This document shows, in pieces, positions 4,428 through 59,740 of a stretch of 64,000 nucleotides of DNA. The stretch is from a virus (taxonomy: Duplodnaviria > Heunggongvirae > Uroviricota > Caudoviricetes). The first letter of the stretch is position 1. Every line of letters starts with the position of its first letter. The notes under the pieces are model-generated. The model worked only from the letters and a program-made list of their open reading frames with translations, did not search any database and had not been told where the DNA came from. The position numbers were made by a program, and so were the translations under genes. The stretch lies in IMG/VR virus record IMGVR_UViG_2529293038_000017, positions 23,342 to 87,341 of that record; one strand, 5' to 3'.

Positions 4428-4453
4428 TAAGACTAAAACGTTGGTTTGGGAGA
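4428..4453. other. cix-like crossover site (left boundary of invertible segment)
   Basis: TAAGACTAAAACGTTGGTTTGGGAGAA; right half is reverse complement of left half of the site at 6010..6035; hix/gix-like AAACC-NN-GGTTT core. Confidence 0.5.
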
Positions 4454-4943
4454 AGGCTCTGCATTACCTGTTGGTGTCCCTGTTCCGTGGCCTTCAGCCA
4501 CTCCGCCAACAGGCTGGCTGAAATGCAACGGTGCGGCTTTTTCTGCTGAAGAATACCCGGAACTGGCAAAGGCTTACCCGACAAATAAATTGCCTGATTT
4601 ACGTGGTGAGTTCATTCGTGGCTGGGATGACGGGCGCGGGATTGATCCAGGTCGCTCTATTTTAAGCGAGCAAGGATATGCAACGGAGGATCATGCTCAC
4701 GGATTACCGTCAAAATCAACCGTAGCAACTGACAGCTCAATTAATTTCTACTTTGACGAGGCATGGGCTACTAGTGGTAATACGGGAGTTATCAGATGGG
4801 GGAACACAAGCGATGCAGGATTGCCAGCCCCTAATTATGGAACTTTTAAAACATATAAACAGTCCGTAGCTAATTTAGGTACTGCTGGCTTAGAAACCCG
4901 CCCTCGTAATATTGCATTTAATTATATTGTGAGGGCGGATTAA
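4446..4943 (+). CDS. silent alternative tail-fibre C-terminal cassette (Sv'-like); expressed only after inversion fuses it to the S constant part
   Basis: N-terminal ~65 aa (GEGSALPVGVPVPWPSATPPTGWLKCNGAAFS...DLRGEFIRGWDDGRG) and C-terminal ETRPRNIAFNYIVRA are shared with the S C-terminus on the opposite strand; middle differs. Confidence 0.6.
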   Translation: MGEGSALPVGVPVPWPSATPPTGWLKCNGAAFSAEEYPELAKAYPTNKLPDLRGEFIRGWDDGRGIDPGRSILSEQGYATEDHAHGLPSKSTVATDSSINFYFDEAWATSGNTGVIRWGNTSDAGLPAPNYGTFKTYKQSVANLGTAGLETRPRNIAFNYIVRAD

Positions 4944-4948
4944 TTATA

Positions 4949-5560
4949 TCAACTGGCTGTAGAAAGTTGTTTTTCAGGCCAGTTGAGATCTGGTGCCGTG
5001 GTTAAATCCATCGCGTTCAGCTCGTCTATATAATCTAGCACGGAGTTAAGCTGCGTGGTTTCTGCCTGCGTCAACTTCCGTCCAGCCCGTAATTTCAACT
5101 GAATCAGACTAATGGAATCCATCGCAGTATCAATCAATGACTGACGTTTTGTTTCTGCTGCCTCTACAGCTGCACTATGTTGAGCCTCAGTATCAACCAC
5201 CCATTTCTCTCCATCCCATTTGTCGTATGGTGTTAGCGGGGCGATAGTGGTTGTATTTTCCGGATAGTCACCCAACACCGTGATTTCTTCGGGATTCCCT
5301 GTGTCAATGCTATAGACAGTTTCGCCACGATGATCTGGCACATACTCCCATGAACTTAAATCCTCTGAACGGAGAATCGCATAACCTGCTTTATGTGAGC
5401 CTGGAGCATCCAAACAAGAATGTGCCGGAATACCAACGCCAACAGCAAGATATTCAGTTGATGCAGAAATATATTCCCGATTACCACCATCATAGTTATA
5501 AACGATAATGTTTCCTGCCTGTATGGCTATAAGTTCGCTATTTAATATCGCATTATCCAT
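4949..5560 (-). CDS. tail fibre assembly chaperone (U/Tfa-like)
   Basis: 203 aa; start overlaps S stop (TAATG); Tfa-type C-terminus (VLDYIDELNAMD); lies inside the invertible segment. Confidence 0.75.
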   Translation of the reverse strand: MDNAILNSELIAIQAGNIIVYNYDGGNREYISASTEYLAVGVGIPAHSCLDAPGSHKAGYAILRSEDLSSWEYVPDHRGETVYSIDTGNPEEITVLGDYPENTTTIAPLTPYDKWDGEKWVVDTEAQHSAAVEAAETKRQSLIDTAMDSISLIQLKLRAGRKLTQAETTQLNSVLDYIDELNAMDLTTAPDLNWPEKQLSTAS

Positions 5561-7239
5561 TATGCTGCTCTCACAATATAATTGAAGGCAATGTTACGTG
5601 GGCGGGTTTCATTCCCCCCAGATAACTCCGTTCTGTATTGACTGGTAAATTTACCATTAATCGCTCCTTCTTGGACGGCGTTATCTGTCGACAACAGGCT
5701 ATCCCCCCCTCTGTCATTTGGCACCAATACCGTGTTATCCCACGCGTCCCATGACCGAATATTATGATAATGACTTCCTGTTAACCACCCCTGTATGCTT
5801 AAGATGACCCTTCCCGCATCCACACCTCGCCCATCATCCCAACCACGGATAAACTCACCGCGTAAATCAGGTAATTTTAACGTTGGGTAAACCTTTGCCA
5901 GATTTGGGTACTTTTCAGAAGAAAATGCTGCTCCGTTACATTTCAGCCACCCCGTTGGTGGTGTGGCTGAGGGCCATGGAACAGGTACACCAACGGGCAG
6001 CGCCGAGCCTTCCCCTAAACCAAGGTAATTAAGAACGCTCTGAATACTGGGCTTACTAAGAATTGCACGTCCAACACTTGTCAGTGCAGTTAACGCGGCA
6101 CGATCAACCCCTGTGAAATAAGGGAGTTTATCTGCTGCGGTAGCTAGTGCCGCTAGAGCAGTGAGCGTAGCGTCTGCCGCTTGCTTTCCATTAGCCAAAT
6201 CATATGCAGCCTTGACAGCTTTCGGTGTAGCGGCCAGCACTTCAGACGTGCTGTTAGTGGCACTACTGAGCTGAGTGATGCCTTTCGCTGTCAATGAAGC
6301 TGTTGGCACACCAGTAATCTGATTCCAGGGATGTGTATGACTGGATGGTGCCTTTCCGGCTGCTAGATCGTATGCAGCTTTAACCGCTTTTGGCGTTGCA
6401 GCTAATGTTTCAGAAGTGCTGTTGGTGTCGCTACTGAGCTGAACTATCCCTTTTTGTGTCGTGGTTGCATCCTGGGCTGTATACTTCCCGTTAGCCAGGT
6501 CATATGCAGCCTTGACAGCTTTCGGTGTGGCGGCCAGCACTTCAGACGTGCTGTTAGTGGCACTACTGAGCTGAACTAATCCCTTTTGCGTTGTGCTTGC
6601 ATCCTGCGCCGTATACTTGCTTTTCGCCAGATCGTAGGCTTTTTTAACTGCCAGCGAACTCGCAGCAACATCACTTCTGGTACTGGTTACAGAGTCTGAA
6701 ATATCAATGCCGATCGTGCGGTTGATACGCTCGGATGTATCAATCATCTCTTGAGTAATGGTAGATACGCCAGCAGGGATATTCACCGTACAAACCAGCA
6801 GTTCCCCATCACCTAACTGATATGAATCGGTATAGGTTCTGGCAACAAATTCAGCTGCATGAATATGTGACGCGGTATTCACCTGATAGGTATCTTCTCC
6901 AAGAAGGTATCTTCCCTTCAGCACAATTGCATATTTCTTGCCTGCGTTAAGTGCAAGAGAGATATCCTTACGATGCTGAATAGTTACCTGGTAGAATTCA
7001 CCAATATCCACTGACGCCGCGCCAGCGGTTTTATCTCCATCCACTGAGGTGATTAACAGGTTCATCCCACCGCCAGGCTTAGGCAAGAAACCAGCATAAA
7101 ATCCCGGGTCAACAATTCCCCTGAATTTTCGGTTTAGAGCGGCTGACAGATATGGTTCGTGGTATTGCACATCAGCCACCAGAGCCAACGACTCGGGTGA
7201 TGGGTAAGTAACCGATGTAACAACTGTAACGTCATTCAT
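5560..7239 (-). CDS. tail fibre protein S (constant part plus currently expressed variable part)
   Basis: Repeated fibre motifs (KAVKAAYDLA..KYTAQDA.TTQKG.VQLSS.TNSTSE, 3-4 copies), C-terminal NETRPRNIAFNYIVRA; start set to ATG 7239 (AAGGA upstream, just after R stop) rather than 7326. Confidence 0.8.
   Translation of the reverse strand: MNDVTVVTSVTYPSPESLALVADVQYHEPYLSAALNRKFRGIVDPGFYAGFLPKPGGGMNLLITSVDGDKTAGAASVDIGEFYQVTIQHRKDISLALNAGKKYAIVLKGRYLLGEDTYQVNTASHIHAAEFVARTYTDSYQLGDGELLVCTVNIPAGVSTITQEMIDTSERINRTIGIDISDSVTSTRSDVAASSLAVKKAYDLAKSKYTAQDASTTQKGLVQLSSATNSTSEVLAATPKAVKAAYDLANGKYTAQDATTTQKGIVQLSSDTNSTSETLAATPKAVKAAYDLAAGKAPSSHTHPWNQITGVPTASLTAKGITQLSSATNSTSEVLAATPKAVKAAYDLANGKQAADATLTALAALATAADKLPYFTGVDRAALTALTSVGRAILSKPSIQSVLNYLGLGEGSALPVGVPVPWPSATPPTGWLKCNGAAFSSEKYPNLAKVYPTLKLPDLRGEFIRGWDDGRGVDAGRVILSIQGWLTGSHYHNIRSWDAWDNTVLVPNDRGGDSLLSTDNAVQEGAINGKFTSQYRTELSGGNETRPRNIAFNYIVRAA
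6010..6035. other. cix-like crossover site (right boundary, inside S)
   Basis: TTCCCCTAAACCAAGGTAATTAAGAA; inverted relative to 4428..4453; ~200 bp of ~80% identical inverted sequence flank both sites inward. Confidence 0.5.
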
Positions 7240-10033: not shown

Positions 10034-10389
10034 AGCACCACGTCCTGTGTGATAGTTATATCCCTGATACGAATGGATATTTTCAACTTATCAAAAGCAT
10101 CTCCCTCGGCTACTGACAAGCCAGAAATCGGTATGTCAGGTAAATCTACCGTCAGTTTTTGCAACAGCATTGCCTCAACCGCAATTTGAACATGCGACAA
10201 GTTGGTCGGTTCGTGTTTAAACTGCGGTAAAACATTGCCCCATGACGGATCTCCGTATACCTCACCCTGATAAGTGTTTAGCCACTCATATAAACGAGCG
10301 CCCCAGGCCTCCTCCTGGGACTCATACGTTTTTACGCCGGATAACTCCAGCGTCAGCAAAGGATCAATTTCGTTATTGTTGGCCATCAA
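10030..10389 (-). CDS. small baseplate protein (GPW/gp25-like, 119 aa)
   Basis: Size and position directly downstream of sit; overlapping stop/start. Confidence 0.4.
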   Translation of the reverse strand: MMANNNEIDPLLTLELSGVKTYESQEEAWGARLYEWLNTYQGEVYGDPSWGNVLPQFKHEPTNLSHVQIAVEAMLLQKLTVDLPDIPISGLSVAEGDAFDKLKISIRIRDITITQDVVL

Positions 10390-13376
10390 TCAACTCTCGC
10401 GTAGTCATTCATCAACGGATCATCAATTGACAGTGGTACCGTGCGCATAACGCCCGGCTGAGGCGTGCTGACCTTTACGACAGTTCCCTGGCCTTTCGCC
10501 GAGTCTTTGGTGTGCTCTTCAATCCTGGCAAGCAATGAGGTCATCTGCGCAAACAGCCGCTTCGTTTCACCATCAAGTGAAACGGTATTATCAGCCAACT
10601 GCATTGTCGGCTTGGCACCGGAACCGCCAAGGTCACTAATAACCTGCCCGTCTATCTGCATACGACCGGTTGGTTGCTGCAAATCGTTGGCGGCAGTCGT
10701 CACCTGGGACGTGGAGGCTGGTTCAGGCGCATTATTTTTCCGCATCCCCGGCGAGTTGCGGAGTTTATCGAATAGTCCATCAATCCCCATTTGTGCGCCG
10801 AGATGGTCAAAGTAACTTGAGTTGTTGGCCACCGGACGCGCCTCTTCAACTGGCATCGGAGTATCAACATACACATTGCCAGCTGCTGTTGCGGTCCCCT
10901 TCTCTCGTGCACGTTCTTCTAGCGTTCCCTGAACGACTTCCCGACGCATCCCCCGGCCATTCATGAATTTGTTGACCAGATCGTTAACGCCAACAGCATT
11001 GCCGATTTTGTCGACCAGACCGCCTTTCTCAAACGGGCTATCACCAGGGGTAAACGCCAGGCCAGTATACTGATCGATAACAGCGTTATCAGGCAGTGGT
11101 CCCCTCACTCCATATTGCGCCCCACCCTGTGCTCCTGCTCCAGGTGTATAGATTTCACCACCTAAATAGCGAGCACGATGAGTATTGACCTTGATCGCGT
11201 ACTCACGGTTTTCTTTCGATAAGTCACCGGTGCCTTTTTTCCACTTATTAATAGTGCCAAACCCAGCATTATATGCAGTGATGGCCTCGTTTAAGTCTCC
11301 ATTGGCTTGCTTAAGATACTTGCTCATGAGAAGAGCCGCAGCTTCTGCCGATTTCACAGGATCAAACGATTCACCTTCAGCTAAGCCAGTCTCTTCACGA
11401 GCAATCCCCGTGAACTGAAACATCCCCAGAGCACCGGTTTGGGATTTTGCATACGGATTACCACCAGATTCAGTTGCAGCAATCGCGTAAAGAGTGCCTT
11501 CTGGAAGACCGTATTTATTCTCTAGTTCGGCAAAATACGGAGCCAACTTATCGAGATTTGCCTTACCTTCAGCGCCAAGACTTCCGACTTTTACATCTAA
11601 GTTGCCATTGTTGTAAGTATCCGCAGCTTTCTGAATGTCATTCCTGGTGCCAGTGGTATTAAGCGACGATGATGACGAGCTATTTTGACCAATAGCTTTA
11701 TCAATTTTCTGCAACGCGCTATTGCCCGTTTCTACGGCATTTGCATTGATAATCTGATTGGCAGTTTGTTTAACTGTTTTATTGCTATCTTTCGCTGTGT
11801 CCAGTGCCGCATTTATCACGCGGGTAGCAATATTACTCTGTTTGGCATCGGATTCAGTTTTAGAATCAGACGTCTCCTGGTGGCTATTAACCGGAGCTTT
11901 TAACTCCGGAGTGATTTCTTTCGCATTAGCCTCGCCGATCGGATTGGGTATTTTTGATACAATCATTGCCGCAGGGGTATTTTTAACGGCATCAACCGCT
12001 GCATCTAATGCTTTACCAGGTAAATTTTTAACCCCATCCCAAATATTACCAGCCGCCTCTTTAATGTGTTTCCCTGGGTTCTTAATGAAATCAATTGCAC
12101 TATCAATTGCATCACTGAAAACCTGTTTCAGGTTATCAACAGTAAAGAAGTCTTTGATGGCATCCAGCTTTTCAAGCAGCTTATTAGATGTATCGCTAAA
12201 CCATGCTGAAACAGCATCACCAATCTTTGCTGTGTAATCTTCGAACTTGGTAGAAATGGTGTCGCCAAGGTTAGAAATATATGTTTCTAAGTTGGTAATC
12301 CCACTATCAATGGCCTGGGCAATACTTTCCGTCGAAAATGATTGCAACATATTGCCGATATCCTCAAATCCAAGTGATTTGAGAACCTCACCAATGGCGC
12401 TGCTAATACCAGATACCAGTCCCCCCATATCAAGAACATTGGCTAACGTATAAGCGGCTTTTTGCTGGAATGATGGCTCTTGTCCTGATTTAAGCCCAAA
12501 CGCTCGACGTTGCGCTTCTGTATCATTCCAACCGGTTACCGCATCATAAATACCTCCAGCCACTGTGCCGACTAAGGGAATTGCGCGTAACGCCCCTTTA
12601 CCAACTGCCTTTAATCCAAATTTACCTGCTGCCCGGGCAGCCAAATCTCCACCTTCATGGGCGATAGTCTTCTTGCCACCACCGCGTAGCATTCCTACAA
12701 GTTTCTTTGCCCCCAGAGCGCCAAAAGCGAGTGCTCCAGCTTTTTTCAGCATGCCACGCCCCATTAACAACGACGCGACGCCACCGGCCCCCTTCCCTAA
12801 CAGGCTAAATAGTTTGGACAGCAAGCCGCCCTTCTTTTTCCCGGTGTTTTTGGCTATCTGATCAAGGGCGCTGAGAATCTTGTCATTGCCCTCTTTAATT
12901 TCGCTGGTCTGCTCCTGAAGTTCCTGAACCGTCCGTTTTTGGGTGTTAACCTGAACGACATCGGCACTATTTTGCGATTTACGCCTAAAAAAACCTTTTC
13001 TACGGCTGTTATCGTCATTGCCACGAATCACATCGGCAATAGACTTTCTGGCGCCATTAAGCGATCCACCAACTTCTTTTGATATCCCGCCAAGCTCCTT
13101 CCCTGCTGCCCACAATGGACCAGCAACGGCATAACCTAACGCATCGACGGCACGAGTCTCTGAAGGGTTACCTATGCCTTCAGCTACTTTTGACAGTTTT
13201 TTTAATAAACCTGATTCAGCATTTAGACGCTCATCATCCTCTTTGCGCCTGGCCTTTTCAGCACGTTCAGCACGGGCATCTTCCGCTGCGGCCTTACTCC
13301 CTGACTTTCCAATAAAACGACCACGCGCATCGCGTTGGTTTTGGCTTTTTTGCGCACCGCCTTTTTGATCGAACAT
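10386..13376 (-). CDS. sit: Sit-like tape-measure/injection protein with lytic transglycosylase domain
   Basis: 996-aa ORF; SLT motifs (ATESGGNPYAKSQTGALGMFQF, AYNAGFG); Gly/Lys-rich N-region; no RBS before ATG 13376 and frame open upstream to the A6 run at 13445..13450. Confidence 0.8.
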   Translation of the reverse strand: MFDQKGGAQKSQNQRDARGRFIGKSGSKAAAEDARAERAEKARRKEDDERLNAESGLLKKLSKVAEGIGNPSETRAVDALGYAVAGPLWAAGKELGGISKEVGGSLNGARKSIADVIRGNDDNSRRKGFFRRKSQNSADVVQVNTQKRTVQELQEQTSEIKEGNDKILSALDQIAKNTGKKKGGLLSKLFSLLGKGAGGVASLLMGRGMLKKAGALAFGALGAKKLVGMLRGGGKKTIAHEGGDLAARAAGKFGLKAVGKGALRAIPLVGTVAGGIYDAVTGWNDTEAQRRAFGLKSGQEPSFQQKAAYTLANVLDMGGLVSGISSAIGEVLKSLGFEDIGNMLQSFSTESIAQAIDSGITNLETYISNLGDTISTKFEDYTAKIGDAVSAWFSDTSNKLLEKLDAIKDFFTVDNLKQVFSDAIDSAIDFIKNPGKHIKEAAGNIWDGVKNLPGKALDAAVDAVKNTPAAMIVSKIPNPIGEANAKEITPELKAPVNSHQETSDSKTESDAKQSNIATRVINAALDTAKDSNKTVKQTANQIINANAVETGNSALQKIDKAIGQNSSSSSSLNTTGTRNDIQKAADTYNNGNLDVKVGSLGAEGKANLDKLAPYFAELENKYGLPEGTLYAIAATESGGNPYAKSQTGALGMFQFTGIAREETGLAEGESFDPVKSAEAAALLMSKYLKQANGDLNEAITAYNAGFGTINKWKKGTGDLSKENREYAIKVNTHRARYLGGEIYTPGAGAQGGAQYGVRGPLPDNAVIDQYTGLAFTPGDSPFEKGGLVDKIGNAVGVNDLVNKFMNGRGMRREVVQGTLEERAREKGTATAAGNVYVDTPMPVEEARPVANNSSYFDHLGAQMGIDGLFDKLRNSPGMRKNNAPEPASTSQVTTAANDLQQPTGRMQIDGQVISDLGGSGAKPTMQLADNTVSLDGETKRLFAQMTSLLARIEEHTKDSAKGQGTVVKVSTPQPGVMRTVPLSIDDPLMNDYARVD

Positions 13377-13414
13377 TTCGCGAGCGTGTTCGGCTGCTTC
13401 GGTCCGTTGTGCCT

Positions 13415-14074
13415 TTATATCCTCTGATATAGCCTTCCTGCGTCTTTTTTACCCTTTGGTGTAGTTGATTTGGCCTGCTGTTCCTGTTGAGCAATGCCCT
13501 CCTGAACTACACGAGAAACGTCCCCTAAATTAAGCCGTTTCATTGCGTCAACAATAGGGTCTACTGATGGCGCATTGGCCACAAAGTCTGGCCGGGAATT
13601 TTCGATTGTTCGATTTAATGCCGACACACTGCGAGATACTGGGTCAACCGTTGCAACGCGTTCCCCTTTCAAATCACGAGCGAGTTTGACCGTTTCTAAC
13701 CGCTGTGCTTTAACATCCTCTGTTATTGCCTCTCTTCGTCTATTTGGGGGATTGTGCGCTGTTGGTGCAGCCTGCTGTTCACGGTTAGTGACTTTGTCCT
13801 CCCGTATACGAGAAACGTCCCCTAAATTAAGCCGTTTCATTGCGTCAACAATAGAGTCCACTGATGGCACATTGGTCACAAAGTCAGGACGTGAATTTTC
13901 GATTGTGCGATTTAATGCCGACACACTGCGAGAGACAGGATCAACAGTTGCAACTCGTTCCCCTTTCAAATCTTCAACAGCTTCCCGAATACCTGCAAGC
14001 TCTTCCAGCTCTTTCGCGCTGGCGGTTTCAACTGTCCTTATAACATCGTCAATATTGGCGTTTTTTCTTTCCAT
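13415..14074 (-). CDS. 219-codon frame in -1 register with sit; likely N-terminal segment of the Sit protein (frameshifted) or separate gene
   Basis: Ends 38 nt before sit ATG; contains two near-identical ~185-bp repeats (period ~297 bp); A6 run at the exact point where the sit frame opens. Confidence 0.55.
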   Translation of the reverse strand: MERKNANIDDVIRTVETASAKELEELAGIREAVEDLKGERVATVDPVSRSVSALNRTIENSRPDFVTNVPSVDSIVDAMKRLNLGDVSRIREDKVTNREQQAAPTAHNPPNRRREAITEDVKAQRLETVKLARDLKGERVATVDPVSRSVSALNRTIENSRPDFVANAPSVDPIVDAMKRLNLGDVSRVVQEGIAQQEQQAKSTTPKGKKDAGRLYQRI

Positions 14075-14155
14075 GATCTTATCGCCTACCGTTTCGGTTT
14101 AAGTTTTTCTTCCAGTTTCTCCAACAGGAAAAACGCATAGGATTCAGTAAGCCTT

Positions 14156-15037
14156 TCAGCGTCCTGAATCGGTATACCCCCATACAAAACCAGGTTGGAC
14201 ACTAAGGTCTGATAGCTTTTCAATCCCCACCTGTGGAATGAAGTCGGTAGCCCGAAAGGGCACCCACAGACGGGTATACGCACCCTCTGTGGACTCCTTT
14301 GTATCCTGGTTTGGGCATTTGTGCGGCGGGAGACGAAGACGCATTTCGCCTTTATCGATGTAGCACGGTAAACCATGTTCGAGCTTTTCATTAGCCAGCC
14401 GGATGTGTGCCGCCAGCTTCATAAATTCAGTATCAATGGCCATCCGTTTGATCGTTTCATAACGACGCTCAGCCTGCTCTTCACGAGTACCGCTAACATC
14501 GTTATAAAGTTCACACTGATAAGCGAATTCCCAAAAACGCAAATCAACGATCGCTTCTTTGAATTCCGCGTCGTCTTCAGGTGGCAATGCTGCTCGGCGC
14601 ATCTCCAGCATTTCCATTGCCCAACCATCAAGCGGCACGATACGCCATTGATAAGGCACGCCCTCTACAGACACCTCAATATCGTCAATGAACGGTTCCA
14701 CTTCCAGGACCTGGATATCTTCAGCCAGAGCATTCATATCGCAATCGTAATAATGCTCTTTACCGCAATGTTTACAGGTGTAGGTAAATGTCTCGATCGG
14801 TGTTTCGCGGGAGCCAGTAAATATCCACCATAACGCGGTAATCCGGTCCTGTGCCGTCCATTTCAGTGGATCATGTTTCGCAGCTTCAGCCAGCAAGGCT
14901 TTTAAATACGCTGTTGTCTGCTGTTCTTGTTCCTCCGGTGTTATCGAGTTGAAACGCATCGCATCAGCAATATTTGGCTGACGGAACTGGATTAATTCAG
15001 TTGGCCGCGATGGTAGCGGGAAAAGGGGTAAAAGCAT
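14156..15037 (-). CDS. Cys-rich protein of tail-gene operon (293 aa)
   Basis: Strong RBS AAGGAG; CKHCGKEH and other Cys/His clusters. Confidence 0.6.
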   Translation of the reverse strand: MLLPLFPLPSRPTELIQFRQPNIADAMRFNSITPEEQEQQTTAYLKALLAEAAKHDPLKWTAQDRITALWWIFTGSRETPIETFTYTCKHCGKEHYYDCDMNALAEDIQVLEVEPFIDDIEVSVEGVPYQWRIVPLDGWAMEMLEMRRAALPPEDDAEFKEAIVDLRFWEFAYQCELYNDVSGTREEQAERRYETIKRMAIDTEFMKLAAHIRLANEKLEHGLPCYIDKGEMRLRLPPHKCPNQDTKESTEGAYTRLWVPFRATDFIPQVGIEKLSDLSVQPGFVWGYTDSGR

Positions 15038-15051
15038 CCTTGCTCCTTAAT

Positions 15052-15663
15052 TTAAAGAGAAAAACTAAAGCCCAGAAGGGAAGCCAAAGAACTTGAGGAT
15101 TGGTTAAACGTGCTGTGCAATGCGAAGGTCATTGGGAATGACTTAAATTCCGTGACCTGATCCCGCGCATAGGTGACATCGCCGGTAGTAACCGGGAATA
15201 CCGTCATCTCATTTTCCAGTTTGGTTAAACCGGAAGACAGCAACCGATAAATACGCACATTGAGCAAATATTTAGACGGTATATTCCCAGTACCGTCCGG
15301 ATTGATCACCCGACTTTTTGCCGTCTTAAACCAGTCCAAAACGAGGCCATCAACGGTATCCCTGACCATCATTGTTATCTGCCCAGGCGAACGCTCCGTT
15401 GGTTGAAGGATATTCCCTCCGCCGATTTTAATCGTTTCATATTCGATGCTGTAATCGTGGTAGGTAATATCTTTGGCAAAGAAGTCTGCCCCCTCCAGTC
15501 CATCAACTTCGACAGAGAACTGCCATCCTTGCGCGAACAACATTTTGTTCATGATGATTGACGTCAGCTTACCAACTTCCCGCTCACCAACGCCGGAGCC
15601 AAATAATGTCGTCGTTAATGCCGAAGATACATAAGACTTTACTGAAGCAACATTAAGCCCCAT
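15052..15663 (-). CDS. tail tube-like structural protein (203 aa)
   Basis: RBS GAGGGAG 8 nt upstream; beta-rich composition, size typical of myovirus tube proteins. Confidence 0.4.
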   Translation of the reverse strand: MGLNVASVKSYVSSALTTTLFGSGVGEREVGKLTSIIMNKMLFAQGWQFSVEVDGLEGADFFAKDITYHDYSIEYETIKIGGGNILQPTERSPGQITMMVRDTVDGLVLDWFKTAKSRVINPDGTGNIPSKYLLNVRIYRLLSSGLTKLENEMTVFPVTTGDVTYARDQVTEFKSFPMTFALHSTFNQSSSSLASLLGFSFSL

Positions 15664-15673
15664 ATCAGCTCCC

Positions 15674-16264
<591 letters not shown>

Positions 16265-16298
16265 TTAACCGATTCTACGAGTAGTCATTTGTGACAGG

Positions 16299-16775
16299 TT
16301 ATTTTGCGCGCTTCAGGCAGCCATCTTCAGGTGCCGCGTTGAAAAGCTCTGCGGCCTTACGTAGCGTAAATGTTGCGATTTTTTTTCCGTCTACGTATGC
16401 ATCGAATGTTTTAACTTCCATATCAGGGGTATCTGACCAAAAACCATACCAGTAACTATCACCCACAGAGGAACCGATAGAACTGATAGGATATTCATCA
16501 TCACCAACTTTCAGCGTTATTTGTTCTTTTTTAGCATCAAATGACTCACCGCCAGGTTCTGTTTTCATGAGAGTGAGTAGTCGTGTTCCTACTTGATTGG
16601 GATCCGTATTATTAAATCCAACATCGCACTCAAATGTAAGCGTATAATTATCTTTGCTGGAAACAGCATAAGAGCGAACGCCATGAGTCTCGCTGGTGGA
16701 CCATTTGCTTACATTTGCCATTGATGAAAACGGAGTAAGCAAAGCAAGAATTAGAAAATATCGTTTGATGCGCAT
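16299..16775 (-). CDS. secreted protein with signal peptide (158 aa)
   Basis: N-terminus MRIKRYFLILALLTPFSSMA. Confidence 0.55.
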   Translation of the reverse strand: MRIKRYFLILALLTPFSSMANVSKWSTSETHGVRSYAVSSKDNYTLTFECDVGFNNTDPNQVGTRLLTLMKTEPGGESFDAKKEQITLKVGDDEYPISSIGSSVGDSYWYGFWSDTPDMEVKTFDAYVDGKKIATFTLRKAAELFNAAPEDGCLKRAK

Positions 16776-16826
16776 TAATTTATCTCCTTTGGATATTAAT
16801 ATTTTAATTAGTTAACCACCATATAT

Positions 16827-17474
16827 TCACCATTCATAGGGTAAATTAAGCGCTTTTAAACCTTGCTGGAAAGTATTAAGAGAGCCGTTTTTTTGTTGTT
16901 CCATTTTTTCGCGTGCAGCTTTCTCATACTGCTCCATCCGTTGGTTATACTCTTGCAATTCCTCCGGGGAGAGGTTTCCCATTGGGGAGTTTGTACCCGG
17001 CCCCCTGGCCCGTTCTTCAAGCGTACCCTGAACGTTTTGATGGCGCATTCCCGGGGCGTTTCTGATTGAATCAATGCCATTTCTTCCAACGTCTTCTTTA
17101 TTAACGGCATTGCTCGCCACCAGTACGCCCCAGCTAGGGATAGCAAAATCAGGAGCGGTTTCGCATGCCTTTACCATATAATCGAAAGAGCTTCGATTGA
17201 TCTCGTTTGCGTCGGGATTTAATAGGCGAGAATATTGATATTTAGCATTTTCGTTGGTTGCGACTTTATACAGTTCTTGCTGCACCATCGCTTCAGAAAG
17301 TTTAAGGCGTTTCATATCTGATAGTAACTTCTTGCGCATGGATTCGTCTTGACTGACAGCAAAACCGTAAACGTGCCCAAGGTATTTCGTATAATCGGTA
17401 CAAATCTCCTTTACGCTTGATGCTGCATTAACAGTCCCAGCCATAAATAATAACGGTAGTAATAGTTTTCTCAT
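16827..17474 (-). CDS. Sim-like secreted superinfection-exclusion candidate; carries a Sit-derived motif
   Basis: Start set to ATG 17474 (AGGTGAGG upstream) giving signal peptide MRKLLLPLLFMAGTVNA; segment NAPGMRHQNVQGTLEERAR matches Sit (GMRREVVQGTLEERAR, NSPGMRKNN) at protein and DNA level. Confidence 0.55.
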   Translation of the reverse strand: MRKLLLPLLFMAGTVNAASSVKEICTDYTKYLGHVYGFAVSQDESMRKKLLSDMKRLKLSEAMVQQELYKVATNENAKYQYSRLLNPDANEINRSSFDYMVKACETAPDFAIPSWGVLVASNAVNKEDVGRNGIDSIRNAPGMRHQNVQGTLEERARGPGTNSPMGNLSPEELQEYNQRMEQYEKAAREKMEQQKNGSLNTFQQGLKALNLPYEW

Positions 17475-17569
17475 TATAACCTCACCTGCCTTATAACTCA
17501 TTTAGGGTACATATTTTCGCCTTTAAAAAAAGAGGTTATTAGATCCAATTGTGTATTTATTAAGCATAT

Positions 17570-17586
17570 AATGCTCTAATAAATTT
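17570..17586 (+). promoter_or_regulatory. C1-repressor-type operator upstream of immI-like operon
   Basis: AATGCTCTAATAAATTT, 1 mismatch to recalled P1 operator consensus ATTGCTCTAATAAATTT. Confidence 0.65.
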
Positions 17587-17624
17587 GTATTTTTAAGTCG
17601 CGAATGCTATCTTTTCGCATCATA

Positions 17625-17653
17625 TTGACCTTTTAATCGTTCAGGCTTATAGT
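17625..17653 (+). promoter_or_regulatory. sigma70-like promoter (TTGACC-17-TATAGT)
   Basis: Hexamers with 17-bp spacer, upstream of c4-like/icd/ant region. Confidence 0.4.
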
Positions 17654-17749
17654 TCCGCCGTCGTAGCAAATTCTGCGACCGGGTTTAGCAGCCTGAATGA
17701 TTGTGCGGACAGCCGCAGATATCCGATATTGCGGTATTTTTGTGTCCGT

Positions 17750-17830
17750 AAAACCGCGTTACGCCCAAATTATGGTGGGGCGTGATGGGGAGGCTTCGGC
17801 CTGCTGGTTTCACAATCGCCAGTCTGCTAA
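17750..17830 (+). ncRNA. c4-like antisense RNA repressor region (approximate)
   Basis: Noncoding leader upstream of icd; CCTGCT and TCACAATC (17808..17825) complementary to AGCAGG and GATTGTGA (17875..17892) overlapping the icd RBS; GC hairpin AGGC-TTCG-GCCT. Confidence 0.4.
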
Positions 17831-17900
17831 CCCCGTCACGTCCTGCCACCTGTTTAGCAGCGGGTAGCAGGTTGTTAAACCTGATTGTGAGGCCGTAACT

Positions 17901-18122
17901 ATGGTTAATGCCAATCCTTGCGCACGCCAAGAATTCATCTGGCGTTTCTATTCCTGTAAAAAACACCACTATCACTTCGTTATCGCAGCAACTGAAGACG
18001 AAGCACGCTCTCAATTGCCTGATGGCCCCTGCATTTTTACTGCCCGTTTTTCAACTAACTCGCGCAATTCACTTAGTTACTGGAACCTCCCCTTCTCTGC
18101 CGACGTTCAGGGGGTTTTATGA
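17901..18122 (+). CDS. icd: Icd-like small protein (73 aa)
   Basis: ORF ends with ATGA overlap onto ant start; position downstream of c4-like leader. Confidence 0.55.
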   Translation: MVNANPCARQEFIWRFYSCKKHHYHFVIAATEDEARSQLPDGPCIFTARFSTNSRNSLSYWNLPFSADVQGVL

Positions 18123-19156
18123 AAAAACCTCTCGTCACCCGTAATGACATAGCCGAAGCGATCGCCCTGCATACTGCCTGTATGCCGACACGGGAGATCC
18201 CCGGCGCAATTGCCAACTATTTCATGATAACCAGACGTTTTTATACCCGAACAGATAAGGCTGTGATCAACAGGCTACTGATAGCCGAGATCAGGGATTA
18301 TTTGATTGAACAAGGACGTCTACGTTACGCAACAGTGGCAGCAGAAATGAGAAAGGAGGCACATATAATGACCGGTAATAATTTGAATGTTGAAAAACCA
18401 GCACCTGTTACGTCAGCTACGCCAGCACCAGCCGTGAATATTATCCCCAACACCGGAGACACAATCGACAGCCTGACACTGTTAAAGATGGTCAATGAAG
18501 CGCGTAAGTTATGTGGGGAACCAGAGGTTCGGAACAACAAATTCATCGAAAAAATACTCGATGAGCTTGATGGTGAGCACTACACAAAAAGTGTAGTGGA
18601 AAAAATGAACAAAACATCAATGCTTGTCATAACCATGACTTTCAAACAAGCCCTGCGAGTCGCCGCGCGCGAGTCAAAAGCGGTCCGCCGTTCGCTGATC
18701 GACAAACTGGAAGAATTACAGCAGGCAAACTCCCCTACCCCATCGATCCCCCAGACATTACCAGAAGCCCTACGCCTGGCTGCCGAGTTAGCAGAACAGA
18801 AAATGCAGTTGGAACAACAGCTGGTGGCCGCAGCCCCTAAAGTCGATTTTGCCGACCGGGTATCAGTGGCCAATGGAATCCTGATCGGGAACTTTGCAAA
18901 GGTCGTTGGACTTAAGCAAAACGCTCTTTTCTCATGGTTGCGCCAGAATGGCATTCTCATGGCTTTTGGAGCGCGCAAAAACGTACCGCGCCAACAGTAC
19001 ATCAACGCCGGGTATTTCACTGTGAAAGAAGTGGTGCTGGATGATGAAAATGGCTACCAGATACGGCTGACGCCCCAATTAACGGGTAAAGGCCAGCAGT
19101 GGTTAACTCGCAAGCTACTTGATGCTGGTTTGTTAAAACCAGTAGCAATAGGTTAA
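18119..19156 (+). CDS. ant: antirepressor Ant (long form)
   Basis: 345 aa; C-terminal domain shared with KilA ORF (LPEALRLAAELAEQK...GKGQQWL). Confidence 0.75.
   Translation: MKKPLVTRNDIAEAIALHTACMPTREIPGAIANYFMITRRFYTRTDKAVINRLLIAEIRDYLIEQGRLRYATVAAEMRKEAHIMTGNNLNVEKPAPVTSATPAPAVNIIPNTGDTIDSLTLLKMVNEARKLCGEPEVRNNKFIEKILDELDGEHYTKSVVEKMNKTSMLVITMTFKQALRVAARESKAVRRSLIDKLEELQQANSPTPSIPQTLPEALRLAAELAEQKMQLEQQLVAAAPKVDFADRVSVANGILIGNFAKVVGLKQNALFSWLRQNGILMAFGARKNVPRQQYINAGYFTVKEVVLDDENGYQIRLTPQLTGKGQQWLTRKLLDAGLLKPVAIG
18368..19156 (+). CDS. antirepressor short form from in-frame internal start (Ant2-like)
   Basis: Internal ATG at 18368 preceded by AGGAGG 8 nt upstream. Confidence 0.45.
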   Translation: MTGNNLNVEKPAPVTSATPAPAVNIIPNTGDTIDSLTLLKMVNEARKLCGEPEVRNNKFIEKILDELDGEHYTKSVVEKMNKTSMLVITMTFKQALRVAARESKAVRRSLIDKLEELQQANSPTPSIPQTLPEALRLAAELAEQKMQLEQQLVAAAPKVDFADRVSVANGILIGNFAKVVGLKQNALFSWLRQNGILMAFGARKNVPRQQYINAGYFTVKEVVLDDENGYQIRLTPQLTGKGQQWLTRKLLDAGLLKPVAIG

Positions 19157-19233
19157 CAAAAGAAAAAACCTGCCAGCAAACTGGCAGGTTTCTGAGCAGA
19201 TCGACCAACCCGATCTGGATCGAGTTAGAAAAA

Positions 19234-19250
19234 TTTGCTCTAATAAATTT
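19234..19250 (+). promoter_or_regulatory. C1-type operator upstream of kilA
   Basis: TTTGCTCTAATAAATTT, 1 mismatch to consensus. Confidence 0.65.
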
Positions 19251-19319
19251 CGTTTTCTAAGTGCAAAGAATCACCATTTCGAGCTGGTGATTGAAGGTTG
19301 ATGCAAATTTGGAGAAAAA

Positions 19320-20120
19320 ATGCAACAAACATTCAATGCGGATATGAATATATCAAACCTTCATCAAAATGTCGATCCTTCAACCACTCTGCCTGTTATT
19401 TGTGGTGTTGAAATTACGACCGACCGAGCTGGCCGTTACAACCTTAATGCTCTACACAGAGCGAGCGGACTCGGTGCCCATAAAGCGCCAGCTCAATGGC
19501 TAAGAACGCTGTCAGCTAAACAGCTCATCGAAGAGCTTGAAAAAGAAACTATGCAGAATTGCATAGTTTCGTTCGAAGGCCGTGGCGGCGGCACTTTTGC
19601 CCATGAATTGCTCGCAGTGGAGTACGCAGGCTGGATTTCTCCCGCGTTTCGGCTGAAGGTAAACCAGACATTTATCGACTATCGAGCCGGAAGATTACAA
19701 CCTGCTATTCCGAAGAGCCTCCCAGAAGCTCTCCGTTTGGCTGCTGACCTGGCAGAGCAAAAGCAACGGCTGGAGCAAAAAATGCTGATGGATGCACCTA
19801 AAGTCGAATTCGCCGAACGCGTTGCTACCGCCAGCGGGGTTCTAATCGGCAACTATGCCAAAGTGCTCGGCCTGGGCCAAAACTATCTCTTCACCTGGTT
19901 GCGTGATAACGGAATTCTGATCGCAACCGGTGAACGCAGGAACGTCCCCAAACAAGAATACATATCCCGTGGGTATTTCACCCTTAAAGAAACCGTGATC
20001 GATACAAGCAATGGAAGCAGGATTTCTTTCACGACTCGTATAACCGGCAAAGGTCAGCAGTGGCTGATGAAGCGATTGCTTGATGCTGGTGTGCTGGTAC
20101 CTGTCGCGGCAACGCGCTAA
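19320..20120 (+). CDS. kilA: KilA-N domain protein with Ant-type C-terminal domain
   Basis: 266 aa; N-terminal KilA-N-like region; C-terminal ~130 aa homologous to Ant C-terminus. Confidence 0.75.
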   Translation: MQQTFNADMNISNLHQNVDPSTTLPVICGVEITTDRAGRYNLNALHRASGLGAHKAPAQWLRTLSAKQLIEELEKETMQNCIVSFEGRGGGTFAHELLAVEYAGWISPAFRLKVNQTFIDYRAGRLQPAIPKSLPEALRLAADLAEQKQRLEQKMLMDAPKVEFAERVATASGVLIGNYAKVLGLGQNYLFTWLRDNGILIATGERRNVPKQEYISRGYFTLKETVIDTSNGSRISFTTRITGKGQQWLMKRLLDAGVLVPVAATR

Positions 20121-20149
20121 CAGACGTAGTAAGAACCACCAGCATTGTA

Positions 20150-20728
20150 ATGCTGGCTAAAGTCACTTTCCTGAGCTGTATAACGATGAGCGATTTTACT
20201 TTTTCTGGCTATGAATTGGCCTGCTTTGTAACACACTCCGGTCTATCCCGTAGCGCCGGGCATATCCTGTCGCAATGTGCAAATCTCGCGGCAACAACCA
20301 GTGAATACTTCATTCACAAGCCTCACCGCCTGATCGCGGCAGAAACTGGTTATAGCCAATCAACCGTCGTTCGTGCATTCCGTGAAGCTGTAAACAAAGG
20401 AATTCTGTCTGTAGAGATTGTTATCGGCGATCACCGTGAACGTCGCGCTAACCTGTACCGGTTTACACCATCCTTTTTGGCCTTCGCACAACAAGCCAAA
20501 AATGCGCTGATTGAAAGCAAATTAAAGATCTCTTCAGCGGCAACCAAGGTTAAAGCTGTTCTCGCTAAGACATTGGCTTTATTTAATTTTTTATCCACAC
20601 CCCCATGTCAAAATGATACCCCCTCCCCCTGTCAGGATGACGTGGCAATAAAGAATAAGAAGTCACAAGTTAAAAAACAAAAAGATCAGTTTCCGGCGGT
20701 GCCGGAACGACCAGACTCAAAAAATTGA
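20150..20728 (+). CDS. RepL-like lytic replication protein candidate (by position after kilA)
   Basis: 192-aa ORF; start uncertain; no motif confirmation. Confidence 0.35.
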   Translation: MLAKVTFLSCITMSDFTFSGYELACFVTHSGLSRSAGHILSQCANLAATTSEYFIHKPHRLIAAETGYSQSTVVRAFREAVNKGILSVEIVIGDHRERRANLYRFTPSFLAFAQQAKNALIESKLKISSAATKVKAVLAKTLALFNFLSTPPCQNDTPSPCQDDVAIKNKKSQVKKQKDQFPAVPERPDSKN

Positions 20729-20994
20729 CTTCATGGATCGCTGAGGCAAAAGCAAAGGCTGACAATCTGCGGTTATCCAAAAAACGCGCTCAAAAACATG
20801 AGTTCAAGCAGAAAGTAGAGGCGGCAGCGCGGAAATATGCTTACCTGAAGAACAAGCGTTCTCCTGATATTGGCGGGGTATCAAACTTCGATAATCTGCC
20901 GCATTGCATGACGGTAAACGAAGCTCTTAATGCGGTTTTAGCCAAAAATAAAGATAACGAACAATGGGGTATACCGGCAGGATTCAGAGGGTGA
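20725..20994 (+). CDS. hypothetical basic protein (89 aa)
   Basis: ORF with start overlapping upstream stop. Confidence 0.45.
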   Translation: MTSWIAEAKAKADNLRLSKKRAQKHEFKQKVEAAARKYAYLKNKRSPDIGGVSNFDNLPHCMTVNEALNAVLAKNKDNEQWGIPAGFRG

Positions 20995-21290
20995 TAGATT
21001 GCTCTAATCTGGAGTCACCTGGCGTTTTCAGTTTGAGGTCGGAGATGCAATCTGATTTTTTACAGTTAGCAATCGCTTTTGCAGGATATGTTTGTATTGG
21101 CTTCTGTGTATACATGATCAGCCGAAAAATGCTTGTCGATATCGACCGCAAAGAACAAGCAGAGAAGATCTTAGTATGGATTTTCTTTGGCGCGGTCTGG
21201 CCATTAGGGATCATGTTTGCTGCAACATTTCTTCTGATGTGGATATTCACCCTTCCAGGTGATTTCTATAGAAAAAAAGCCAGACATTGA
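20964..21290 (+). CDS. small membrane protein (108 aa)
   Basis: Two hydrophobic helices (LAIAFAGYVCIGFCVYMI, ILVWIFFGAVWPLGIMFAATFLLMWIF). Confidence 0.45.
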   Translation: MGYTGRIQRVIDCSNLESPGVFSLRSEMQSDFLQLAIAFAGYVCIGFCVYMISRKMLVDIDRKEQAEKILVWIFFGAVWPLGIMFAATFLLMWIFTLPGDFYRKKARH

Positions 21291-21413
21291 TACAATCGTT
21301 GCGGGTGCTTGAGGCTATCTGCTTCAGGCATTACCCGAAAAGCAGATAGAAGAAAGCCCCAGATAACATTACGCGTCCTGCAAGACGCTTAACATTAATC
21401 TGAGGCCATATCT

Positions 21414-21620
21414 ATGCTTAGCATACGTAGATTAGCCTCTTACCGACCAAAAGGTCAAGGAGAAGCAGGCTATGAAGCAGCAAAAAGCGATGTTAATCGC
21501 TCTGATCGTCATCTGTTTAACCGTCATTGTGACGGCACTGGTAACGAGGAAAGACCTCTGCGAGGTACGAATCCGAACCAGCCAGACGGAGGTCACTGTC
21601 TTCACAGCCTACGAATCTGA
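21414..21620 (+). CDS. mok: Mok-like overlapping reading frame of hok locus
   Basis: 68-codon frame starting 58 nt upstream of hok and overlapping it out of frame, as in hok/mok/sok loci. Confidence 0.5.
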   Translation: MLSIRRLASYRPKGQGEAGYEAAKSDVNRSDRHLFNRHCDGTGNEERPLRGTNPNQPDGGHCLHSLRI

Positions 21621-21627
21621 AAGGTAA
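21472..21627 (+). CDS. hok: Hok/Gef-family type I toxin (51 aa)
   Basis: MKQQKAMLIALIVICLTVIVTALVTRKDLCEVRIRTSQTEVTVFTAYESER matches the Hok pattern (C..LT...LTRK.LCE.R.R...EV..F.AYES); RBS AAGGAGAAG; below track cutoff. Confidence 0.8.
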   Translation: MKQQKAMLIALIVICLTVIVTALVTRKDLCEVRIRTSQTEVTVFTAYESER

Positions 21628-21702
21628 GAGACCTGGCGGGGAGAGATCTCCGCCACTCTTCGTGTGTCAGGTATCCTCAATGCACCCTTTCCTCTCCAAA
21701 TA

Positions 21703-21728
21703 AAAAAGCTCCCGAAGGAGCTTTAAAA
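21703..21728. terminator. bidirectional rho-independent terminator
   Basis: AAAAAAGCTCC-CGAA-GGAGCTTT between convergent operons, A-run and T-run flanks. Confidence 0.6.
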
Positions 21729-21743
21729 TACAAGGGATTACTA

Positions 21744-22253
21744 TTAATCCCACTCAATCCAGTTGTAGACGATACGAAGTGACGGGCGCACAGCGGCAGT
21801 CACATCTTCGGTACTAAAGTCGATTGCATCACTGTAGATTTTGCAGTCCAACATTTCAATTGTTGTAGCAGCTTTTGTCACAGCGTTAACCCCGGAAGAT
21901 TTGGATTCAGGGGTAGCAGCCATCGTGATATCAACATAGTCCTTCGCCGCAATGCGATCCTTGATGAACTGAAGAATATCGCCTTCGATAGTCTCCACGC
22001 ACTGGACCTGGATTTCCCCAGAGTTTCGAATTGGTCCGTGCTGGTTGAACTTCACACCATTCGGACCATAGTCCTCCACATCCTCGCGGGTCATTTCAGG
22101 AATTTGCGACGTGCGAACCAGTACGCTGATATCTTCATGGCCTGCAAAAGTGAGCTGGAATTCAGAAGATACCAGTCGTTCGCCTTTGGCCGCGTTGGCA
22201 GTATAGCGGCCCTTAATAAATTTACGGTTTCCCTTAGTGTTATTGTGCCCCAT
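21744..22253 (-). CDS. virion structural protein candidate (169 aa)
   Basis: ORF in late structural operon downstream of sheath-like gene. Confidence 0.45.
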   Translation of the reverse strand: MGHNNTKGNRKFIKGRYTANAAKGERLVSSEFQLTFAGHEDISVLVRTSQIPEMTREDVEDYGPNGVKFNQHGPIRNSGEIQVQCVETIEGDILQFIKDRIAAKDYVDITMAATPESKSSGVNAVTKAATTIEMLDCKIYSDAIDFSTEDVTAAVRPSLRIVYNWIEWD

Positions 22254-22264
22254 ATAAAATCCTT

Positions 22265-22846
22265 TTACTGGAACGCCCGAACAATATCGGAGCTGTTATA
22301 TATCGAAGAACCGGTCAACTGGAGGTTGACGGTGTTTTTCAGGAAATGCCCATTGCTGTCCCTGGGCGCATCGAGATCGAAACTTATGTCCTGGATAGCG
22401 ACATCAATGATGTTGATCCGGCGACCAATGTTTAGCGTCACACGCTCCGGGATTCGACCACCAATACTGGCATCTTTAAGTTCCGGGCTAATCATCGCTG
22501 ACAATGCGGCGATAGCGCCTGAAACCTCCATGAATGGGTCAAACAAAGCGATGAAAGTTACTGGCAGCGTGAAAGTCGGCGGTGTTCCCCCCTCCCAAAC
22601 CATTAAGCTGTTCCAACGGGCCACCGACGTTGTTTCAGTACCAACCTGCGCAAAACCACTGAAAGCACCAGCAACAGACCCCATGGACATACCGGTAAAC
22701 GGCGCTTCCCAATTCTGGGCCATGTTCATTGCCGCCCCCTGGCTGATATATCCGGTAACCTGGTACTGAGAGTTCGTTAAAGTAACTTTCAGAAATGGTG
22801 ATACACCGTCAGCCTGGCTGTAAACCCCATAAGGTATAGGTGCCAT
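22265..22846 (-). CDS. virion structural protein candidate (193 aa)
   Basis: ORF in same operon. Confidence 0.45.
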   Translation of the reverse strand: MAPIPYGVYSQADGVSPFLKVTLTNSQYQVTGYISQGAAMNMAQNWEAPFTGMSMGSVAGAFSGFAQVGTETTSVARWNSLMVWEGGTPPTFTLPVTFIALFDPFMEVSGAIAALSAMISPELKDASIGGRIPERVTLNIGRRINIIDVAIQDISFDLDAPRDSNGHFLKNTVNLQLTGSSIYNSSDIVRAFQ

Positions 22847-22881
22847 TCAAGTTAAAGGCCGGAGTTCTCCGGCCTCCTCCT

Positions 22882-23697
22882 TTAGCCAAGGCGCTTACGG
22901 CGCAGTTTCATTGACTTTTTGCGGGCAAGTTTTGCCGCGCCGGTCTGGGCTTTTCGACGCGCTTTTTTCAGCGCCGATTTTTGAGCCGCAGTCAGACGTT
23001 TTTTACGCAGGCGTTTACGGATGAGTTTGATCTCACCGTTACGAACAACCTTCTTAAATGCTTCAGTCAGCATTTCATCAGAAGTGCCAGCAACAACAAA
23101 CGCCGCTTCCAGTTCGTCGCGGTCGTCGCTATCTAAACCAGCGATAGAGGCACCAACATCAGCAGCAGCGTCGTCGTCTTCATCGTCAGCCAGTGCTTCG
23201 ATCAGGTCATCATCTACACCGCATGCTGCGAGGAAGTCAGCAACATTTGCCCATGCTTCGTTATAGGCATCGTCCTGTTCTTCTGTAACTTCGGAGTCGT
23301 CGTCATCAGAGATACCAGCGATAGCCTGAACGAAACCATCAAGGGAGTCGAAAGTCAGATCACCGCTATCAGCCCAGGAGAAAACGGCGTCGGCCGCATC
23401 ACTCAACGCATTCTGCATAGCACTTCGATTTGCAGCTTCCAGAATCATCTGGTGCGCCTGTTCGACGGTCCATTCTTTACCGTCTTTCCCTTCCAGGATT
23501 TGCTCTGGAGCCGGGGCAGATGGAACGTTATCGTTAGTCTGTGCCGCCGGTTCCGGATTATTATTAATAACCGGATCTGTTGGCGGTTCGGCGCTTGCTC
23601 GGGCAGACTCCATCAGCTGCACAGGATCAGAGTTCAAAGCGAAACGGGACAGTCCATTCCCCAAAAATGCCCCGGATTGAAAAAAGTTTTTGCTCAT
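22882..23697 (-). CDS. acidic protein with basic C-terminal tail (271 aa)
   Basis: Asp/Glu-rich core, KKRLTAAQKSALKKARRKAQ tail; between sheath-like and downstream structural genes. Confidence 0.45.
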   Translation of the reverse strand: MSKNFFQSGAFLGNGLSRFALNSDPVQLMESARASAEPPTDPVINNNPEPAAQTNDNVPSAPAPEQILEGKDGKEWTVEQAHQMILEAANRSAMQNALSDAADAVFSWADSGDLTFDSLDGFVQAIAGISDDDDSEVTEEQDDAYNEAWANVADFLAACGVDDDLIEALADDEDDDAAADVGASIAGLDSDDRDELEAAFVVAGTSDEMLTEAFKKVVRNGEIKLIRKRLRKKRLTAAQKSALKKARRKAQTGAAKLARKKSMKLRRKRLG

Positions 23698-56235: not shown

Positions 56236-56244
56236 GGCGAGCGT

Positions 56245-56466
56245 ATGCAATCAGTTATTTGTGAGGAAGTCGGCCTGAATAAAGCATCCCCAGCAGAGTT
56301 AAGAGCAAGTCTCGAAATGGCGCATAGCCTTGCTCAAATTGGTGTCAGGTTTGTACCAATTCCAGTTGAAACAGATGAAGAGTTTCACAGGTTAGCGGCA
56401 TCGGCAGCACAAAAGCTGGAAATCATGGCAGCGAAAGTAGAGAAAGCTGAAGGAGCGACAAAATGA
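56245..56466 (+). CDS. hypothetical protein (73 aa)
   Basis: ORF in operon. Confidence 0.4.
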   Translation: MQSVICEEVGLNKASPAELRASLEMAHSLAQIGVRFVPIPVETDEEFHRLAASAAQKLEIMAAKVEKAEGATK

Positions 56467-56678
56467 GCAAGCCAACCGACGAAGAAATAGTTCGGGTGTT
56501 GGAAGAACACGGGCGCTGTATGACTTACGTCGTGACCAACTGGCTTAGGGATAAATATCGCACACTCAAAACGGCATACGTTTTGCGTCGTCTAAAAAAA
56601 CTGGAGTTCGACGGGAAAGTAAAGCGCGTTAACAGTTCTTATATAAGACAAATTTGCTGGGAGGCATCCAGTGAGTAA
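56463..56678 (+). CDS. small basic protein, possible winged-helix regulator (71 aa)
   Basis: ORF overlapping stop/start. Confidence 0.4.
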   Translation: MSKPTDEEIVRVLEEHGRCMTYVVTNWLRDKYRTLKTAYVLRRLKKLEFDGKVKRVNSSYIRQICWEASSE

Positions 56679-58408: not shown

Positions 58409-58409
58409 T

Positions 58410-59730: not shown

Positions 59731-59740
59731 GGCATAACGA

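Follow-up and report, generated by a model that had tools for sequence, protein, structure and literature searches.

The 64,000-nt stretch of DNA analysed here (the window; positions 23,342 to 87,341 of IMG/VR record IMGVR_UViG_2529293038_000017) is a P1-like phage-plasmid and is identical, letter for letter, to draft contig AIFB01000032.1 of assembly GCA_000249195.2. Its tail locus is syntenic with tub–pmgB–sit–pmgA–bplA of P1: sit lies downstream of tub, between pmgB and pmgA/bplA, as it does in P1, phi456 and p1303_95. At the sit position the minus strand carries two open reading frames (ORFs), one of 219 and one of 996 codons (Table 1), separated by a gap of 38 nt (13414..13377). On this strand the codon starts fall at 1 mod 3 in the upstream ORF and at 2 mod 3 in the sit ORF, which places sit in the −1 frame. 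The junction reads ...CCA AAG GGT AAA AAA GAC GCA GGA..., and the sit frame is closed there by a TAA (13451..13449) that adjoins the A6 run: its T comes from GGT and its two As open the run. The frame is open from 13448 downstream. The earlier note had described this stop codon against the A6 run, the gap and the −1 offset, and the sequence agrees with it throughout, all of its coordinates included. The start codon of the upstream ORF is the annotated sit start of P1 and phi456. Behind the authentic Sit N terminus, codons 211–219 of this ORF (DAGRLYQRI) form an out-of-frame tail that ends at a TAA.

Table 1. Features of the split sit locus (window coordinates unless another record is named).
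Feature	Position	Strand	Details
Upstream ORF	14074..13415	-	219 codons; ATG start; TAA stop 13417..13415
sit 5' fragment	13415..14074	-	Codons 1-210 are the authentic Sit N terminus (ending ..TPKGKK)
In-frame 297-nt tandem duplication, sit 5' region	13464..13972	-	Copies 13464-13675 and 13761-13972, 84% identical
A6 tract (T6 on the plus strand)	13445..13450	-	One base short relative to all relatives (alignments and panel tally)
sit 3' part, -1 frame	10386..13448	-	Stop 10388..10386; residues 210-1229 of intact Sit
sit ORF	13376..10386	-	996 codons
ATG of the annotated 996-aa product	13374..13376	-	Internal Met-234 of intact Sit
SLT lytic transglycosylase domain	11208..11537	-	PF01464; residues 614-723 of the 996-aa piece
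996-aa annotation in other records	17656-20646 of NZ_CP009168.1 (L004/L006); 17558-20548 (L037)		Also in L041-L050

The two ORFs are halves of one gene. The 219-aa piece matches positions 1–134 of PHROG 2533, a profile of 1130 positions (E = 2.5e-96), and positions 135–1130 are covered by the 996-aa piece (E = 0); the two matches are contiguous and do not overlap, and the arrangement of the ORFs is therefore not a matter of chance. The SLT domain in the larger piece (E = 7.5e-27; 93.7 bits against a gathering score of 21.3) falls in the C-terminal third of Sit. When one A is inserted at the tract, a protein of 1229 aa results that is identical at all 1229 residues to the Sit of p1303_95 (NZ_CP009168.1), in which the frame is open for 1229 codons. 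The segment of intact Sit that spans the junction reads ..STTPKGKKRRRKAISE.., and the sit DNA is 99.946% identical to that of p1303_95 and MMC-J-0066, which corresponds to about one substitution plus the gap. The Sit family is characterized by a single ORF; the window as it stands has two, in −1 register, and has the single one once the A is inserted. Sit is the tape-measure protein of P1, a 120.6-kDa virion component with an SLT domain at about residues 750–900 (PMC9024508), and P1 sit is essential for plaque formation (PMC10695390). The window thus holds a single tail tape-measure gene, sit, whose product has a C-terminal SLT domain; this copy is either disrupted or mis-called.

Comparison with known Sit proteins bears out the structural reading of the earlier note. 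P1 Sit is a single ORF of 1140 aa (YP_006507.1, NC_005856), the approximate length given in that note, and the Sit of phi456 (OR339795.1) has 1231 aa. The note had held that a single slip or a 1-nt indel would fuse the two ORFs into a protein of about 1200 aa; the product of the insertion has the 1229 aa given above, and the proposal can now be sharpened, because the lesion is a contraction from A7 to A6 with respect to the nearest relatives. The alignment to P1 sit that the note had suggested shows AAAAAAC in P1 and A7 in the nearest relatives, and presents the two ORFs as parts of one gene. Separate genes in relatives, the downstream one with its own ribosome-binding site, would have spoken for two proteins; relatives have one gene. 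The repaired product shares with P1 Sit its locus, its start codon, its SLT domain and 96.5% amino acid identity over 1130 aligned residues. It differs from P1 Sit, which is encoded by one ORF with AAA AAA CGA at the site where the window is one base short, by a 99-aa tandem duplication near the N terminus and by two small indels.

The duplication accounts for a 99-residue gap of P1 Sit in the protein alignment. It is absent from P1 and present in phage phi456, and a 1001-nt query spanning it matched 100 PLSDB plasmids and 113 E. coli records at an identity of at least 99%. If Sit sets the length of the tail at about 1.5 Å per residue (PMC9024508), the duplication predicts a tail that is about 15 nm longer. 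Upstream of sit, a 101-codon ORF on the minus strand (14086..14391), in the +1 frame, overlaps the 3' end of pmgB, which encodes a putative tape-measure chaperone; it extends 70 nt beyond the pmgB stop codon and stops 11 nt short of the start of sit. In phi456 and in the source contig a 38-aa part of this ORF is annotated; the ORF itself is probably due to chance. As the partner in a frameshift of the G/GT type it was rejected for its register, which is +1 and not −1.

Other parts of the window also differ from p1303_95. Positions 4438–6574 align to it both ways (4438–6023 forward and 5825–6574 reverse), which would fit either the opposite orientation of the invertible tail-fibre C-segment known from P1-like phages or a difference in its cassettes. 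Two further stretches, 39100–41051 and 56232–61334, have no counterpart or a poor one in p1303_95 and are accessory or variable plasmid regions.

The annotated form of sit in the window is not peculiar to it. At least 24 contigs, and also p1303_95 and MMC-J-0066, are annotated with exactly this 996-aa product (GenBank and RefSeq), a distribution that could be taken to mean two genuinely separate genes, with a 996-aa protein starting at the ATG at 13376. Among the ten contigs listed with this product, however, only the window's own has A6; the nine others all have A7 and, counted from the start of P1 sit, an open frame of 1229 codons. The internal ATG also lacks an upstream Shine–Dalgarno sequence: as the earlier note had stated for the sit ORF 10386..13376, no ribosome-binding site precedes it, and the 20 nt before it (..GCAGCCGAACACGCTCGCGAA ATG) contain none of GGAG, GAGG or AGGA. 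The full-length protein is annotated in other records of identical sequence type, and P1 virions contain Sit at 120.6 kDa (PMC9024508). We regard two separate genes as the least credible of the explanations considered here. That the 996-aa ‘Sit’ is so widespread reflects truncation in annotation and is no sign of a separate gene. RefSeq and GenBank carry 996-aa Sit entries from Met-234 (for example, WP_001410776.1) for many plasmids despite their open 1229-codon ORF, and other records of identical sequence type carry a full-length CDS, so that annotation is inconsistent. One speculation is that the 996-aa model was seeded by frameshifted drafts such as that of the window.

The sequence of events at the junction can be read from the relatives. 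P1 and phi456 have GGT AAA AAA CGA CGC, and the nearest relatives (p1303_95, p1493-4, 673R5 and MMC-J-0066) have GGT AAA AAA AGA CGC; the change from CGA to AGA is synonymous for arginine and creates an A7 tract. The window is identical to p1303_95 across the 761-nt junction region except for the length of the tract, whereas p1303_95, p1493-4 (NZ_CP019075.1) and phi456 have A7 (A6C in phi456) and a continuous ORF of 1229–1231 codons. Because its flanks are those of the A7 lineage across these 761 nt, the parsimonious event is a contraction from A7 to A6. In a panel of relatives with matching flanks, all 27 have seven As where the window has six. The A7 tract arose in the window's sublineage by the synonymous change, and in the window's sequence sit is interrupted by the non-programmed loss of one A from it. 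This loss most likely reflects under-calling of the homopolymer in the assembly; the real plasmid would then encode an intact Sit of 1229 aa.

Among the sequences searched, A6 was seen in a single draft contig only, AIFB01000032.1. None of the 214 complete E. coli records and 173 PLSDB plasmids that align to a 66-mer from the window contains it exactly, and the best matches in both sets all differ from it by exactly one gap. A 30-mer carrying A6 had no matches in IMG/VR or in metagenome contigs; the corresponding A7 30-mer had seven and six matches, respectively, and the A6C form had 22 in IMG/VR. Neither A6 nor A7 was matched in a genome collection with one genome per species, whose make-up renders that result uninformative. 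No A8 allele was found in the sequences searched, and among the loci that were fetched A6 occurs only in the window's own contig. The 219-aa product corresponds to no gene on record by exact look-up, and a homology search with it returned only partial Sit proteins at contig ends, none of them with the frameshifted tail.

A −1 offset at a run of As invites the explanation that the A6 tract is a site of −1 ribosomal frameshifting or of transcriptional slippage, programmed or leaky, which would yield the 219-aa product together with a low level of full-length Sit. Runs of the lysine codon AAA are known to be prone to frameshifting in E. coli, and the wild-type ..GKKRRRKA.. would be regenerated exactly at the junction if tRNA-Lys slipped by −1 on AAA AAA or if the mRNA gained an A. 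The two-frame layout on which such a mechanism would depend is not conserved, however: every relative examined has one continuous ORF. The zero frame GGT AAA AAA GAC gives T AAA AAA and not a canonical X XXY YYZ heptamer, which was not found. The 95 nt downstream fold with a minimum free energy of −17.3, compared with a mean of −19.6 for shuffled sequences (z = +0.76), and 161 of the 200 shuffles fold at least as well. An SD-like AAGGG upstream of the run was considered as a frameshift stimulator and dismissed, since a distance of 1 nt to the run does not suit −1 stimulation. Slippage by RNA polymerase typically needs an A/T run of at least 8–9 nt to reach an appreciable level; the run here has 6 nt, and the out-of-frame arrangement is not conserved in relatives.

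Known frameshift sites lead to the same assessment. The chaperones of the lambda G/GT type and E. coli dnaX resemble the window in having a Lys-codon A-run at the junction and, in lambda, adjacent tail-module ORFs in −1 register. Their frameshifts, however, have a conserved two-frame architecture, an X XXY YYZ heptamer and, in most cases, stimulators, whereas at the window junction nothing is conserved and the heptamer is non-canonical. Moreover, the G/GT-type shift affects the chaperone gene, which lies upstream of that for the tape measure, and the break in the window lies inside the tape-measure gene itself. Recoding, whether programmed or leaky, is therefore highly improbable, and any rescue of Sit by slippage would be incidental, at the per-cent level or below.

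The position of the lesion in a homopolymer, and the fact that A7 is common to a sizeable sublineage, would also suit a phase-variable contingency locus at which the length of the A-tract toggles virion production. Such a locus should vary among relatives, yet the 27 panel sequences with identical flanks show no polymorphism in tract length (all are A7, with no A8 and no other A6), and beyond the window's contig neither A6 nor A8 was seen in any collection or fetched locus. P1-type relatives do not have the tract at all (A6C), and seven bases are short for a contingency locus. A phase switch here is very unlikely, and programmed recoding and phase variation taken together retain little probability. 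The earlier note had offered four causes without choosing among them. Two of these, an inactivating mutation and a sequencing error, survive the comparison; programmed slippage falls to the single-ORF relatives, the T AAA AAA heptamer, the 6-nt run and the absence of a stable downstream structure, and the phase switch to the lack of any A8 or of any second A6 in the sequences searched, in which A7 is common.

The sit tract is one of several homopolymers at which the window departs from its relatives. The gene for the lytic replication initiator, repL (window 20150–20994, plus strand), which encodes 281 aa in relatives, is split into pieces of 192 and 89 aa by a contraction from A7 to A6 at 20672–20677. 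Eight further draft contigs, and 2 of 389 complete E. coli records, share this A6 and the identical 192-aa product; at least three different repL haplotypes are involved, and later assemblies are among those with this allele (GCA_016990935.1, GCA_046589635.1 and GCA_025262045.1). Inheritance of the repL A6 together with its flanking haplotype was considered and rejected, as the otherwise identical repL haplotype of a close relative (L014) has A7; the tract may be either a recurrent hot spot of real inactivation or a recurrent hot spot of error. An intergenic tract at 17525–17531 (plus strand) is A7 in the window and A8 in 17 of 18 panel sequences and in 181 of 182 complete-genome records, with the one remaining record carrying the window's allele. 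Not far from it, at 16800, the window has a 10-bp deletion with respect to most relatives. At 63942–63947 (plus strand) the window has A6 where all 209 matching complete-genome records are one A longer (A7); this contraction deletes the stop codon of a theta-like hot gene and changes the C terminus from ..APKK to ..APKNNGKMGEKCD before the next stop.

A different pattern is seen in a 94-aa ORF, in which a 1-nt deletion (TT to T) at 63089 is followed 28 nt on by a private expansion from A7 to A8 at 63110–63117 (plus strand). The two changes together keep the frame and rewrite nine residues (EKENASLKK to KKRTRASKK). In a 76-nt stretch here the best-matching relatives have one base fewer; judged by length alone, they would have the deletion at 63089 without the expansion at 63110.

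Weighed against one another, these observations suggest a technical origin of the sit lesion: judging from the pattern of differences among the sequences, we put the probability that it is a homopolymer under-call in the assembly at roughly 60%. Among about 95 long ORFs shared with relatives only sit and repL are frameshifted, both by a contraction from A7 to A6. Over window positions 12868–22900, the window differs from its nearest relative, L014, by two substitutions and four single-base contractions. In a 13.1-kb alignment with the same relative, 4 of 9 A/T tracts of at least 7 nt are contracted, compared with none of 20 comparable tracts of 6. There are 6 private substitutions in the 41 kb covered by at least 10 relatives, and the ratio of private contractions to substitutions is about 1:2 overall and 2:1 with respect to the nearest relative. 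From E. coli mutation spectra a ratio of about 1:10 is expected. The high ratio of indels to substitutions, the confinement to long tracts and the bias towards contraction favour homopolymer under-calling. In addition, the A6 allele occurs in one assembly only, on a common flanking haplotype, and other long tracts in the contig are discrepant as well, which is what we would look for in an artefact. Further genes that seemed to be truncated in the contig's own gene calls (a 215/224-aa gene, a YfjT-like gene and pmgG) have intact ORFs in the window and reflect differences in gene calling only.

Some features of the contig fit this reading less well. The contractions are clustered, affecting 4 of 7 long tracts at 13–21 kb and none of 10 at 21–55 kb, a pattern that is predicted neither by artefact nor by real mutation. 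The private expansion from A7 to A8 at 63110 brings a small ORF back into frame with respect to the closest haplotype; this resembles biology more than noise and counts against an artefact. Real contractions of such tracts probably circulate, since the repL A6 is found on at least three other haplotypes, later assemblies included.

These last points bear on the possibility that the loss of one A is real, the outcome of a very recent replication slippage. It would have knocked out the tape measure, leaving a prophage that persists without infectious tailed particles, and it might belong to the early decay of an element that is also without RepL. A7 tracts are genuine hot spots for −1 slippage. 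The frameshift of repL in the same contig, together with the occurrence of the repL A6 in several assemblies and on different haplotypes, makes defective P1-like plasmids plausible, and the expansion at 63110 restores a frame. As sit is essential only for lytic growth (PMC10695390, PMC9024508), its loss would be tolerated in the plasmid state. Against a real mutation, the allele is confined to one draft contig among the sequences searched. Apart from the lesion, Sit matches that of intact relatives at 100% identity, and the other ~95 long ORFs are intact, so that there is no sign of relaxed selection. The observed ratio of contractions to substitutions (~1:2, and 2:1 with respect to the nearest relative) is also far above the expected ~1:10. 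A recent loss is accordingly a tentative second reading, possible but not the one that we favour.

A precedent among public assemblies of P1-like plasmids for such homopolymer-length errors or pseudogenes is ECO12 (NZ_CP090325.1), in which single-base contractions of A7 tracts likewise split lytic-cycle genes, with a repL contraction identical to that of the window and PGAP ‘frameshifted’ flags on repL, pmgB and bplA. It differs in that its sit is intact, the sit lesion of the window being unique to its own contig. The 1-nt deletion of ECO12 within the 1-kb pmgB–sit query is absent from its sister isolates ECO11 and ECO13.

A further possibility combines a real A6 with residual expression. Low-level Sit would then arise by incidental −1 slippage of tRNA-Lys or by stuttering of RNA polymerase, and the A7/A6 tract, together with that in repL, would serve P1-like plasmid prophages as a mutational throttle that turns virion production on or off. 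We consider this far-fetched.

With the under-call as the preferred reading and a recent loss behind it, there is nothing new in mechanism at this locus, which is an ordinary one-off base-calling error or a very recent knockout of the known P1 Sit. The biological weight of the finding is small and its use lies mainly in annotation: the locus is best entered as a single sit gene, frameshifted or mis-called, rather than as two genes or a recoding site. If the deletion is real, the P1-like plasmid of this strain would be a tail-less, non-infectious prophage, a common fate rather than a new mechanism.
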